Below are positions 30,246 through 62,926 of a stretch of DNA of 64,000 bases, piece by piece. A program made the translations under genes and the position numbers. The stretch lies in assembly GCF_044324875.1 (NCBI RefSeq), contig NZ_CP172185.1. One strand, given 5' to 3'. Positions within the stretch are counted from its first letter, which is position 1. Every line of letters starts with the position of its first letter. The notes under the pieces are model-generated. The model saw nothing but the letters and a program-made list of their open reading frames with translations, had not been told where the DNA came from and made no database searches. This stretch comes from Escherichia coli (GTDB taxonomy: Bacteria > Pseudomonadota > Gammaproteobacteria > Enterobacterales > Enterobacteriaceae).

Positions 30246-30357
30246 CCCCGGCTAGACCGGGGTGCGCGAATACTGCGCCAACACCAGGGAAATCTTGGCT
30301 GCGCCGTAAATTATTATGATGAGTTACAAGGGCACAGCACTGTTTTTCAGGCCGCAC
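30237..30357 (-). ncRNA. arcZ: ArcZ (SraH/RyhA) Hfq-dependent sRNA, antisense to the arcB 3' end
   Basis: Minus strand reads GTGCGGCCTGAAAAACAGTGCTGTGCCCTTGTAACTCATCATAATAATTTACGGCGCAGCCAAGATTTCCCTGGTGTTGGCGCAGTATTCGCGCACCCCGGTCTAGCCGGGGTCATTTTTT, matching my recollection of ArcZ including the terminal hairpin and U-run. Confidence 0.8.
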
Positions 30358-43970: not shown

Positions 43971-44129
43971 ATTTTTTCAGGCCGGATATGGCGTTAACCG
44001 CCTGTCCGGCAAACCTGCCTGCAAGTCGAGCCTTGTCTGATTTATCAGCGAGGCTTTTTGCTTATTTATGCCAGCGCAACTTTGCTCTAAGATGTTTCGC
44101 TGGTTTATTAACTGATGATTGAAGATCCC

Positions 44130-49164: not shown

Positions 49165-50352
<1,188 letters not shown>

Positions 50353-50376
50353 TCACTGATGATAAACGCCAAATAA

Positions 50377-50475
50377 GCCTGATGCGCTACGCTTATCAGG
50401 CCTACAAGAGAATTGCAAAATGTTGAATTTGCACGACTTTGTAGGCCGGATAAGGCGTTCACGCCGCATCCGGCA
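50377..50475. repeat. REP/BIME-type extragenic palindromes (two units) between obgE and dacB
   Basis: GCCTGATGCGCTACGCTTATCAGGCCTACA and TGTAGGCCGGATAAGGCGTTCACGCCGCATCCGGCA, classic REP sequences. Confidence 0.8.
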
Positions 50476-50505
50476 TAAACAAAGTGCACTTTGTCAATAA
50501 TCTGA

Positions 50506-50535
50506 AGCCCCGGCCATGTGCCGGGGTTTCTCTTT
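50506..50535 (+). terminator. Terminator-like hairpin after the REP cluster
   Basis: CCCCGG-CCATGTG-CCGGGG followed by TTTCTCTTT. Confidence 0.5.
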
Positions 50536-50538
50536 AGA

Positions 50539-51972
50539 CTAATTATTCTGATAAATATCTTTATACAAACGGCTTTCAAATCGCACTAACGGAATACGGC
50601 GATTACGCTGATCCGCCGGTTCTACTGCATAGCCGGAAAGATATTGTACAAACGCCATTCGTTGCCCGCTCGCCGTGGTAATGAATCCCGCCAGGTTATA
50701 TACCCCCTGCAACGAGCCGGTTTTCGCTGAGACTTTGCCATCCACGCCCGCCTGATGCAGACCTGCACGGTACTGCAAAGAGCCGTCATAGCCCGCCAGC
50801 GGTAGCATAGAGATAAAGTTAAGTTCATTGTCGTGTTGGGCAATGTATTGCAGCACCTGCATCATGGTGGCGGGGGCAATCAGGTTATGCCGCGAAAGCC
50901 CTGAACCATCGGCAATAATGGTGTTACCAATATCGACACCGGCTTGCTGGCGCAGGATCTGACGCACGGCGTCCGACCCGGCCCGCCATGTTCCAGGCAC
51001 ATTGAAGCGCGCATGGCCTATCATGCGGAAAACCGTATCGGCAATCATGTTGTCCGACTTTTTCAGCATAATCTTAAGCAGATCGTGCAGCGGGGCCGAC
51101 TGTTTACTGGCAACTACCGTTCCAGGTTCGTTAACCTGAGTCTGGCGTAGCAGTGTTCCGCTCCAGGTGATACCTGCCTGTTTTAACTCATCTTTCAGAA
51201 TTGCCCCAGCATAGCTGGCTCCATCCTGCACGGCAAAAGCCAACGGGAGCGGCTCAGAACGTTGTGGCAGGCATCCGGTCAGCGTAAAGCGGTTCAGGTC
51301 GCCTGGCACCACATCCAGCTCGCAATATTGCGCTTCGGCAGAACCACGGGGGAGGGTGCGTACCTGGCTGAACATCGTAACGGGGTAATAAGATGCCACG
51401 CGTATAAAAGCCATATCACCAGGTTTTGGGGCACTGTAGAGCGAGACGGAGAAACAGTTGCGGTCAACTATGGCGGCGGCAGGCGGAGCGCTAAAGCATT
51501 GTGTCATGTCATTCCATGGCCAGCCGGGGGCTTTATCGTGGCTGGCGAAAATGGAGGTATCTATCAACACATTGCCATCGATTTGGTTGACGCCAGATTT
51601 TTTCAAAGTCGCGACCATATTGCGAATATCCTGACGTTTTAACGTCGGATCGGCACCAAATCGCGCCACTAAGTCACCCTTAAGTACGCCGTTTTCCACA
51701 TTGCCTTTGGTTTCAAGCGTCGTGGTAAAACGAAAATCGGGGCCGAGTTGAATCAACGCCGCCAGCGCAGTAATCACTTTCTGGGTACTGGCGGGCAGCG
51801 CCATCTGCTGACTGTGGTAATCAATAGCGGGGGCCGACGCGCCGACTTTTTGCACCATCAGGGCAAGGTTGGCACCAGCGGGGAGTTGAGTAATGTACTC
51901 ATCAACATTTGCGGCCTGAACACTGAACGCTATACAGCTGGTCAATCCGATGATAAATCTGGAAAATCGCAT
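50539..51972 (-). CDS. dacB: D-alanyl-D-alanine carboxypeptidase/endopeptidase PBP4
   Basis: 477-aa ORF with signal peptide and STQK active-site motif. Confidence 0.95.
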   Translation of the reverse strand: MRFSRFIIGLTSCIAFSVQAANVDEYITQLPAGANLALMVQKVGASAPAIDYHSQQMALPASTQKVITALAALIQLGPDFRFTTTLETKGNVENGVLKGDLVARFGADPTLKRQDIRNMVATLKKSGVNQIDGNVLIDTSIFASHDKAPGWPWNDMTQCFSAPPAAAIVDRNCFSVSLYSAPKPGDMAFIRVASYYPVTMFSQVRTLPRGSAEAQYCELDVVPGDLNRFTLTGCLPQRSEPLPLAFAVQDGASYAGAILKDELKQAGITWSGTLLRQTQVNEPGTVVASKQSAPLHDLLKIMLKKSDNMIADTVFRMIGHARFNVPGTWRAGSDAVRQILRQQAGVDIGNTIIADGSGLSRHNLIAPATMMQVLQYIAQHDNELNFISMLPLAGYDGSLQYRAGLHQAGVDGKVSAKTGSLQGVYNLAGFITTASGQRMAFVQYLSGYAVEPADQRNRRIPLVRFESRLYKDIYQNN

Positions 51973-52048
51973 AATCTCGCGCTAACAACCTGGAATCGAG
52001 CCGTCATACTACGGCGCAACGCCCTATAAAGTAAACGATGACCCTTCG

Positions 52049-52125
52049 GGAACTTCAGGGTAAAATGACTATCAAAATGTGAATTGTAGCTGACCTGGGA
52101 CTTGTACCCGGGTCGGTATTTTTTT
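52049..52125 (+). promoter_or_regulatory. greA leader: sigma-E-type promoter followed by an intrinsic terminator (GraL-type leader RNA)
   Basis: GGAACTT, 16-bp spacer, TCAAA (52049-52076); then GACCTGGG...CCCGGGTC hairpin plus TTTTTTT (52092-52125) upstream of greA. Confidence 0.45.
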
Positions 52126-58776: not shown

Positions 58777-58863
58777 GCCGAGGTGGTGGAATTGGTAGAC
58801 ACGCTACCTTGAGGTGGTAGTGCCCAATAGGGCTTACGGGTTCAAGTCCCGTCCTCGGTACCA
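58777..58863 (+). tRNA. leuU: tRNA-Leu (anticodon GAG)
   Basis: GCCGAGGTGGTGGAATTGGTAGACACGCTACCTTGAGGTGGTAGTGCCCAATAGGGCTTACGGGTTCAAGTCCCGTCCTCGGTACCA; cloverleaf with long variable arm and encoded CCA. Confidence 0.93.
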
Positions 58864-62643: not shown

Positions 62644-62720
<77 letters not shown>

Positions 62721-62842
62721 CTTTCCCTTAGAGTCCTTTTTCAAATATACTGTGAAGACTTCGGCCTTCGTAGTGGGATTTGAAAAAATCCTTCTGGAAA
62801 GTGCTCCAGACCGCAGTTGCGGTTATAGGGTTCAGTTATATA

Positions 62843-62868
62843 AAGCCCCGATTTATCGGGGTTTTTTG
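62843..62868 (+). terminator. Intrinsic terminator/attenuator between metY and rimP
   Basis: AAGCCCCGATTTATCGGGGTTTTTTGTT. Confidence 0.8.
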
Positions 62869-62926
62869 TTATCTGACTACAGAATAACTGGGCTTTAGGC
62901 CCTTTTTTTATGTCTTGGGGGTGGGC

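Follow-up and report, generated by a model that had tools for sequence, protein, structure and literature searches.

We analyzed a 64,000-nucleotide (nt) stretch of Escherichia coli DNA (NCBI RefSeq assembly GCF_044324875.1, contig NZ_CP172185.1; the whole stretch is called the window here), in which the convergent genes obgE (cgtA) and dacB are separated by a spacer of 186 nt, counted between the two stop codons. We are confident that this spacer holds one full-length bacterial interspersed mosaic element of type 1 (BIME-1, also called RIP/RIB; REP243 in strain K-12), which adjoins but is distinct from the intrinsic terminator of obgE and dacB. At many sister copies of the element, the neighboring terminator palindrome is present twice, once on each side. 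[quoted passage not shown] It would integrate at the foot of a terminator palindrome, mostly a bidirectional one between convergent genes, and duplicate the whole palindrome (18 to 27 bp), the hairpin in the window being the surviving half. As a feature, the repeat is already catalogued, is an ordinary E. coli repeat, and has little importance. The first-pass annotation of the window had likewise regarded the site as typical extragenic palindromes of low interest, a judgment that holds, except that the site is specifically one BIME-1 and not a generic cluster.

Anatomy and identity of the repeat

The obgE coding sequence (positions 49180 to 50352, plus strand) ends in the stop codon TAA at 50350 to 50352, and dacB (50539 to 51972, minus strand) ends in TAG at 50539 to 50541 (cta on the plus strand), as read from the open reading frames (ORFs) and from the annotation of near-identical E. 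coli records. The 4.35-kb block 5' of the spacer shares 99.7% identity with many complete E. coli genomes. The first-pass annotation had placed two inverted REP units, a GC hairpin, and a T-rich tract between the two genes, at 50377 to 50535, and all of them were recovered at exactly these coordinates. The whole BIME-1 (about 150 nt) extends over 50353 to 50503, the block that varies between strains; its limits come from the alignment of long and short alleles, from paralogous copies, and from a 153-nt family consensus.

Reading from obgE, the element begins with a left outer motif of 23 nt (50353 to 50375), which serves as the left TIR and is common to the copies at mog-satP, fliC-fliA, artJ-rlmC, uspB-pitA, and other places. 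This motif abuts the obgE stop codon, and its first 2 to 3 nt are lost or altered (tcaCTGATGATAAACGCCAAATA compared to the consensus GAGACTGATGACAAACGCAAAAT). A Z1-type REP unit of 29 nt follows at 50377 to 50405 (GCCTGATGCGCTACGCTTATCAGGCCTAC), in the complementary (iREP) orientation on the plus strand, with CTAC at 50402 to 50405; it is near-invariant across five paralogous copies. The 35-nt L linker (AAGAGAATTGCAAAATGTTGAATTTGCACGACTTT, 50406 to 50440) is conserved in all of the paralogous copies aligned and contains a putative IHF-type core, ATTCAACATTTTG (50416 to 50428, minus strand), which departs from WATCAANNNNTTR by one mismatch; the family consensus, ATTCAATATATTG, has the identical mismatch. 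Next comes a Y-type REP unit of 35 nt (GTAGGCCGGATAAGGCGTTCACGCCGCATCCGGCA, 50441 to 50475) that starts with GTAG at 50441 to 50444. The element closes with a right outer motif, the right TIR, of 28 nt (50476 to 50503), which is common to sister copies and holds a perfect 16-nt palindrome (ACAAAGTGCACTTTGT, 50479 to 50494). We equate the outer motifs with the external "A" and "B" motifs of the literature.

The comparison with REP consensus classes that had been proposed along with the first-pass annotation gave this arrangement of a Z1-type and a Y-type unit around an L linker. Only two units are present, one of the form GCCGGATG...CATCCGGC (35 nt) and one of the form GCCTGATG...ATCAGGC (29 nt), and we named them y and z1, respectively, according to the published consensus. 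An inverted-repeat search showed that they are inverted relative to one another, with their heads toward the linker. The 19-nt REP head pattern matched twice in the window, compared to 0.01 matches expected. Both units fold as hairpins, and the fold of the spacer reaches -74.3 kcal/mol on either strand (z of about -6.1; 0 of 200 shuffles were as good), well beyond chance. The BIME-1 of about 150 nt is one long imperfect palindrome overall.

A REP, or palindromic unit, is defined as an imperfect palindrome of 30 to 40 nt with GTAG (complement, CTAC) at its foot and is named y, z1, or z2 (PMC3333891). BIME-1 is defined by one z1 and one y unit in single copy, with a long conserved L linker that often carries an IHF site (PMC3333891). 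PMC1187871 gives its size as about 140 bp and, citing Bachellier 1997, describes it as present or absent among isolates. The spacer has the GTAG/CTAC feet, the hairpins, the extragenic position, and the high dispersed copy number of REPs. It likewise has one y and one z1 unit in inverted order outside any tandem array, a long conserved linker with an IHF-type core, and presence or absence among isolates. With its size of 140 to 150 bp and its single copy, the element shows no essential difference from the BIME-1 family; the left outer motif of this allele is 2 to 3 nt shorter at the obgE stop codon, and the first base of Z1 and two linker positions deviate from the consensus. The identification also agrees with the catalogue entry REP243, placed between the convergent obgE and dacB at MG1655 3330461 to 3330558 (supplement to bioRxiv 10.64898/2026.03.23.713779), which corresponds to 50376 to 50473 in the window. 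The RefSeq annotation of MG1655 lists no repeat features.

The copy number was assessed in two ways. By megablast, the spacer region matched a median of at least 39 places per E. coli genome. A 46-mer of the linker, searched by blastn in a 28-Gb database, retrieved only near-identical copies, at a median of 3 places, and we used this search for sampling sister loci. Z1, L, and Y are nearly invariant at fliC-fliA, sseB-pepB, gyrB-yidB, and mog-satP, and the same anatomy recurs at about 20 further sites from metagenome contigs. The outer flank motifs are present in many, but not all, of the sister copies. Neither the linker nor the flanks are peculiar to the obgE-dacB locus, which would have contradicted the identification.

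The number of units bears on whether the spacer could be a BIME-2 or atypical BIME, that is, a DNA gyrase site made of tandem Y and Z2 units. Such a site would share the Y unit and a second inverted unit with what we see, but the spacer holds just one pair of units outside any tandem array, one of the pair is short (29 nt), and the linker is the long L type and not the short S type. We find this reading hardly credible. The odds are poorer still for a protein-coding gene. A minus-strand ORF at 50349 to 50579 (76 amino acids, TTG start) is among the listed ORFs, and the E. coli MC1061 record (L001) carries a pseudogene coding sequence, a PGAP "hypothetical protein" fragment, at 424 to 522, equivalent to about 50376 to 50474 in the window. 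The ORF is built of repeat sequence and extends over the dacB stop codon and the terminator; genomes with the short allele lack it altogether, and PGAP itself flags its fragment as incomplete at both ends. The fragment is almost certainly an annotation artifact of translated REP sequence, and the chance that either is a real gene is close to nil.

Two Rfam models matched the spacer below their gathering scores. The linker matched the whole 43-nt model of ES036 (RF02751; 50398 to 50440, minus strand) with 29.7 bits against a gathering score of 37.6, and naRNA4 (RF02564) matched 50444 to 50495 on the plus strand with 38.3 bits against 59.5, its first hairpin corresponding to the Y unit almost base for base. 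Together with the statement in PMC4550694 that most REPs are transcribed, these matches could suggest that the spacer is a REP-derived small RNA gene in its own right (of the naRNA4/CssrE or ES036/CssrF kind) and not a passive element of the 3' untranslated region (3' UTR). However, besides falling short of the gathering scores, the matches cover only the generic Y hairpin and L linker of every BIME-1, and this is as expected of generic REP-derived models. A promoter scan of 49900 to 51000 returned no sigma-70-like promoter on either strand, and the naRNA locus studied as a model was found to work as a 3' UTR element and not as a nucleoid RNA (bioRxiv 10.64898/2026.03.23.713779). A separate small RNA gene is thus unlikely here, and a BIME-1 in the shared 3' region of the two genes fits better.

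By analogy with the family, for which this has been demonstrated, the L linker is expected to bind IHF on DNA and to be bent by it. This expectation is weakened by two observations: the core is one mismatch off the textbook consensus, and a scan of the window for the IHF consensus gave 71 matches when 53 were expected, so the motif alone is uninformative. Because of this, our argument for IHF rests on the homology of the linker to the family. The locus is unmentioned in the main text of the IHF chromatin immunoprecipitation sequencing paper.

The terminator hairpin and the variable block

Directly to the right of the element stands the GC hairpin GAAGCCCCGGC-catgt-GCCGGGGTTTC (50504 to 50530; stem, 50504 to 50514 and 50520 to 50530; loop, 50515 to 50519), with a folding energy of -21.7 kcal/mol (z = -5.2) and followed on the obgE strand by UUUCUCUUU. 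The T-rich tract TTTCTCTTT (50527 to 50535) continues from the hairpin, giving it a U-rich tail to 50535, and ends three bases short of the dacB stop codon. A stable GC stem-loop with an immediate U-rich tract, 3' of a stop codon, is what an intrinsic terminator consists of. A simple terminator scan did not list this hairpin because it extended the stem through GAA/TTC and was left with too few T residues in the tail window; when the 7-bp GC core is taken as the stem, the tail is TTTCTCTT, with six T residues in eight positions. The Term-seq table of Adams 2021 gives no direct support for the hairpin as the obgE terminator: it contains no curated 3' end inside the spacer, an absence that may reflect thresholds or the handling of repeats.

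As regards variation across strains, which the first-pass annotation had suggested for a check, matches covering at least 80% of the query were found in 1,929 of the 5,425 complete E. coli genomes with a match. The other genomes, in the rows sampled, align in two pieces over a span that is 146 to 147 bp shorter. Their short allele reads TAA-TCAGCAAAACCCCGGCCATG(C/T)GCCGGGGTTTCT, that is, the obgE stop codon, TCAGCA, and the same hairpin and T tract. In Citrobacter, a homologous hairpin (AAAACCCCGGCCATGTTGCCGGGGTTTTT) comes straight after the obgE stop codon. Since the short alleles and Citrobacter have the hairpin and lack the element, we regard the hairpin as the old terminator of obgE and dacB and the BIME-1 as the later arrival. 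On these comparative grounds, the hairpin and T tract are not part of the repeat and appear to be a preexisting terminator common to both genes.

The same comparison bears on the possibility that the three hairpins are a composite terminator evolved by the host, with no mobile history. The position at the 3' end of two convergent genes would suit such a structure, and REPs can attenuate transcription. However, the block of about 146 bp is cleanly absent from most E. coli genomes, which keep the hairpin, and the same block, flank motifs included, recurs at numerous unrelated loci for which empty alleles exist as well. We therefore consider a composite terminator very unlikely and keep to a BIME-1 next to an older terminator.

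Like known bidirectional intrinsic terminators, the hairpin combines a GC stem-loop with a U run. It lies 3' of obgE and a few bases beyond the stop codon of dacB, and both Escherichia and Citrobacter have kept it. A and T runs border it on both sides in the short allele, as in bidirectional terminators. In the long allele, by contrast, the U run of the dacB strand is replaced by the end of BIME-1, and the terminator is probably one-directional.

Two haplotypes of the flank were seen at 50527 to 50560, within 30 bp of the indel, in a comparison with L001 to L006: TTTCTCTTTAGAC..ATTATT and TTTCTTTTT-GAC..ATTGTT. Long and short alleles alike were seen with each haplotype, a mixing that implies either old recombination or recurrent gain and loss.

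The spacer also varies beyond E. coli. Across 71 Enterobacteriaceae species, it is 32 to 248 nt long or, where genes intervene, about 1.74 kb. In Citrobacter, Salmonella enterica subsp. arizonae and diarizonae, and Kluyvera, it holds unrelated single or paired REPs, and several of these species have a different terminator hairpin (AACGGGCCGCATTTGCGGCCCGTTTT). Judged by sequence, this indicates that other REPs have colonized the spacer independently. Such colonization, along with the presence or absence of the element among E. coli genomes, bears out the suggestion in the first-pass annotation that the site is a hot spot for rearrangement. The distance of about 1.74 kb between dacB and obgE was seen in Enterobacter, Silvania, and Buttiauxella; in Enterobacter asburiae (L049, 3434 to 5139), an OmpR-type response regulator (221 amino acids) and a histidine kinase (347 amino acids) are encoded directly 3' of dacB.

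Palindrome duplication at sister copies and a proposed mode of BIME-1 insertion

The 153-nt BIME-1 consensus ends in AGACTGATGACAAA and AGATTGTTGACAAA, which form TIRs of 14 nt with 12 of 14 positions matching; none of 2,000 shuffles did as well. The repeats are weaker in the window copy than in the consensus. For 12 independent sites that have both flank motifs, the 45-nt flank left of the element was then scored against the 45-nt flank right of it. Seven of the 12 scored 11 to 18, with direct repeats of 18 to 27 nt that abut the ends of the element and contain a whole GC hairpin in each case. As a control, 132 mismatched pairings of left and right flanks gave a mean score of 5.95 and a maximum of 10. 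With the obgE-dacB site of Escherichia whittamii included, 8 of 13 independent sites are flanked by a duplicated terminator palindrome. Besides the E. whittamii site, the loci with a duplication are mog-satP (L014/L095), artJ-rlmC (L111/L217), uspB-pitA (L100/L218), metE-ysgA (L109/L219), L103, L104, and L116, along with the partial copy at L105.

At five loci (obgE-dacB, mog-satP, artJ-rlmC, uspB-pitA, and metE-ysgA), an empty allele is available, and each empty allele has exactly one hairpin. Among the 5,425 complete E. coli genomes, the site is filled in 467 at mog-satP, in 3,192 at artJ-rlmC, in 1,940 at uspB-pitA, and in none at metE-ysgA, where the filled state comes from only one related metagenome contig. 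At all five loci, the target lies between convergent genes, and the duplicated segment and the empty-site palindrome agree in extent, with at most 2 nt of difference at either end. Where the two copies differ, the changes are mostly confined to loops or compensate each other in stems (in E. whittamii, A-T to C-G; at metE-ysgA, T-A to C-G). By the logic of filled and empty sites, the pattern looks like a target duplication made on insertion, with a length that tracks the local structure and not a fixed stagger.

Two other origins of the flanking copies were rejected. An inverted duplication of the hairpin had been considered since the loops differ and the stems match; by eye, the loops are not reverse complements of each other. 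Transduction of a hairpin from the donor site was dismissed on the ground that the empty allele of each locus matches both of its copies. A second-pass nhmmer search over 1.5 Mb of loci yielded no usable new site, and its null was contaminated because a palindromic element matches both strands; the clean statistic is that of the 132 mismatched pairings. Full-text literature searches found no description of the flanking duplication, although they did not extend to the key BIME papers of the 1990s, so a prior description is possible.

One site deviates in its extent. The BIME-1 at L105 (2652 to 3281, viewed on the minus strand) has no left flank motif and is accompanied by a duplication of about 35 nt that includes the hairpin, the T tract, and CGCCAAAAGCAA; the duplication, therefore, does not always end at the foot of the palindrome.

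The history of the obgE-dacB site can be followed in its relatives. The orthologous element occurs in E. whittamii, E. albertii, and Escherichia sp. MOD1-EC7003, as identified by a locus-specific start (AAGAGAAT) and end (CAATAATCTG) of the linker; in the decayed E. albertii copy, the linker starts with AGAGTAT. E. whittamii carries the terminator palindrome on each side of the element, in the order ...TCAGTAAAACCACGGCACTGCGCCGTGGTTT, gg, the element, and AAACCCCGGCACTTCGCCGGGGTTTCT..., the two copies being AAACCACGGCACTGCGCCGTGGTTT and AAACCCCGGCACTTCGCCGGGGTTT, which differ by the compensatory stem change noted above. The left side of the short E. coli allele is that of the left copy in E. 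whittamii, and its right side is that of the right copy. We rejected the idea that a simple deletion between TAATC repeats turned the long allele of E. coli into the short one: it predicts TAATCTGAAACCCC, and the sequence observed is TAATCAGCAAAACCCC, which matches the left copy in E. whittamii.

BIME-1 inserted into an older arrangement, a terminator hairpin straight after the obgE stop codon, which survives in most E. coli genomes and, with the same hairpin, in Citrobacter. If BIME-1 does insert in the manner described, insertion would first have duplicated the palindrome, giving hairpin, element, and hairpin as in E. whittamii. The E. coli long allele, window included, would then have lost the left copy, leaving the window hairpin as the surviving right-hand one. 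Recombination between two palindrome copies would restore an empty site.

Several observations count against target duplication or against this order of events. Five sites with both flank motifs, the window allele among them, show no duplication. The window allele itself lacks a left hairpin copy, and E. albertii has the same hairpin-less left junction as E. coli. Moreover, the two copies in E. whittamii share a derived loop (CACTGCG and CACTTCG, compared to CCATGCG elsewhere). Either gene conversion between these copies or an event of later date is needed to account for that loop, and the order in which the states arose is thus not settled.

The BIME-1 family has the TIRs and the flanking target duplication, with a single copy in the empty allele, that characterize MITEs; the duplication follows an atypical pattern and is not visible in the window allele. 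In classical MITEs, the duplication is short and of fixed length (such as TA), whereas that of BIME-1 is long and varies with the local palindrome, which it equals. Bacterial MITEs with an IHF site, for example, the Correia elements of Neisseria, share a size of 100 to 400 bp, TIRs, folding as one long hairpin, an IHF site, a 3' location, and cotranscription. We know of no parent transposase with matching ends, although no search for an insertion sequence with such ends was made.

A second comparison is with REPINs, REP doublets mobilized by RAYTs (TnpA_REP, an IS200/IS605-like Y1 transposase). They share the inverted REP doublet, the GTAG heads, the spacer between the units, and the gain and loss of units, and the BIME-1 ends carry C|TGA, similar to the C|T cleavage sites reported for TnpA_REP (PMC3333891). 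However, a Y1 transposase of the IS200/IS605 type is not expected to leave flanking repeats (PMC3333891). Y1 transposition makes no target duplication and does not need TIRs, whereas both 14-nt TIRs and 18- to 27-nt duplications are present at sister copies of full-length BIME-1. This lowers the likelihood of IS608-like mobilization; a RAYT may nonetheless act on the REPs. An association of REP doublets with palindromes also exists in the REP dimers GTAG-23 of Thermomicrobium roseum and CGTC-1 of Halothiobacillus neapolitanus (PMC3733652). Those dimers lie inside one palindrome, with an arm on either side, in contrast to BIME-1, which has whole hairpins as direct repeats and targets that are unrelated to each other in sequence.

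The duplication of the palindrome is itself an observation, but a cruciform mechanism, the enzyme, and the role of IHF are matters of conjecture. In the simplest geometry, the palindrome would be duplicated by a pair of strand transfers spanning the base of a fork hairpin or an extruded cruciform, and the bend introduced by IHF at the center of the element could bring the two terminal repeats together.

How REPs and BIMEs spread, and why they lie at the 3' ends of genes, has been an open question since the 1980s, the mechanism being described as unknown in PMC3333891. The palindrome-duplication signature, with eight independent sites and empty alleles at five loci, offers a testable target rule and a constraint on the enzyme. 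Seventy-eight REPs, nearly 40% of those between convergent genes, lie within bidirectional terminators (bioRxiv 10.64898/2026.03.23.713779), an excess that the signature, if true, would explain. As an insertion signature of BIME-1, the duplication deserves a proper census.

Expected effects on transcripts and other features of the window

With the element in place, the obgE mRNA would gain about 150 nt of very stable 3' UTR structure and would still end at the unchanged hairpin and U tract. Depending on context, REPs in 3' UTRs can serve as barriers to 3' exonucleases and as sites of partial Rho-dependent termination (bioRxiv 10.64898/2026.03.23.713779).

The change on the other strand is of a different kind. 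After the hairpin, the dacB strand continues with GGGGUUUUGCUG (UUUU) in the short allele and with GGGGCUUCAGAU (CUUCAGAUU) in the long allele. The U tract on the dacB strand is thus gone in the long allele, and leakier termination of dacB is therefore expected. Transcription reading through from dacB would cross the element, and Rho would halt it just past the far side, antisense to the 3' end of obgE. In K-12, a region bound by Rho in vitro in dacB-sense RNA spans MG1655 3330557 to 3330725 (supplement to bioRxiv 10.64898/2026.03.23.713779), which transfers to 50209 to 50377 on the minus strand of the window. Its start coincides exactly with the far end of REP243, and it overlaps an obgE-antisense RNA that is sensitive to bicyclomycin (bioRxiv 10.64898/2026.03.23.713779). 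Adams 2021 (supplementary file 2) likewise lists, at MG1655 3331179(+), a Rho termination region that is antisense to obgE. These binding and termination data fit leakier dacB termination and suggest read-through.

Two points pull the other way. No general effect of terminal REPs on mRNA half-life is reported (bioRxiv 10.64898/2026.03.23.713779), and a stabilizing role may be nil here. In addition, the Rho data are from K-12, in which the element is 96.9% identical over the 386-nt query, and were moved to the window by coordinates, so that their transfer is inferred.

Sequenced E. coli genomes thus amount to a clean natural experiment: in about one-third, the obgE 3' UTR holds 150 nt of additional structure and the dacB terminator has lost its U tract, and the rest show neither change. 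An isogenic comparison of the two alleles could show the effect of a BIME-1 on two essential-pathway genes, encoding a ribosome assembly GTPase and a penicillin-binding protein.

Elsewhere in the window, another REP lies 5' of a terminator: a solitary, decayed REP-like palindrome (CAGGCCGGATATGGCGTTAACCGCCTGTCCGGCA, 43979 to 44012) is followed by a hairpin with a T tract (GAGCCTTG...CGAGGCTTTTTG, 44028 to 44062). Rfam matches above threshold are those expected for this chromosomal region, namely, the ArcZ small RNA (30250 to 30357, minus strand) and, on the plus strand, the greA leader (52003 to 52124), the rimP leader (62809 to 62909), and two tRNAs (58777 to 58860 and 62644 to 62717).

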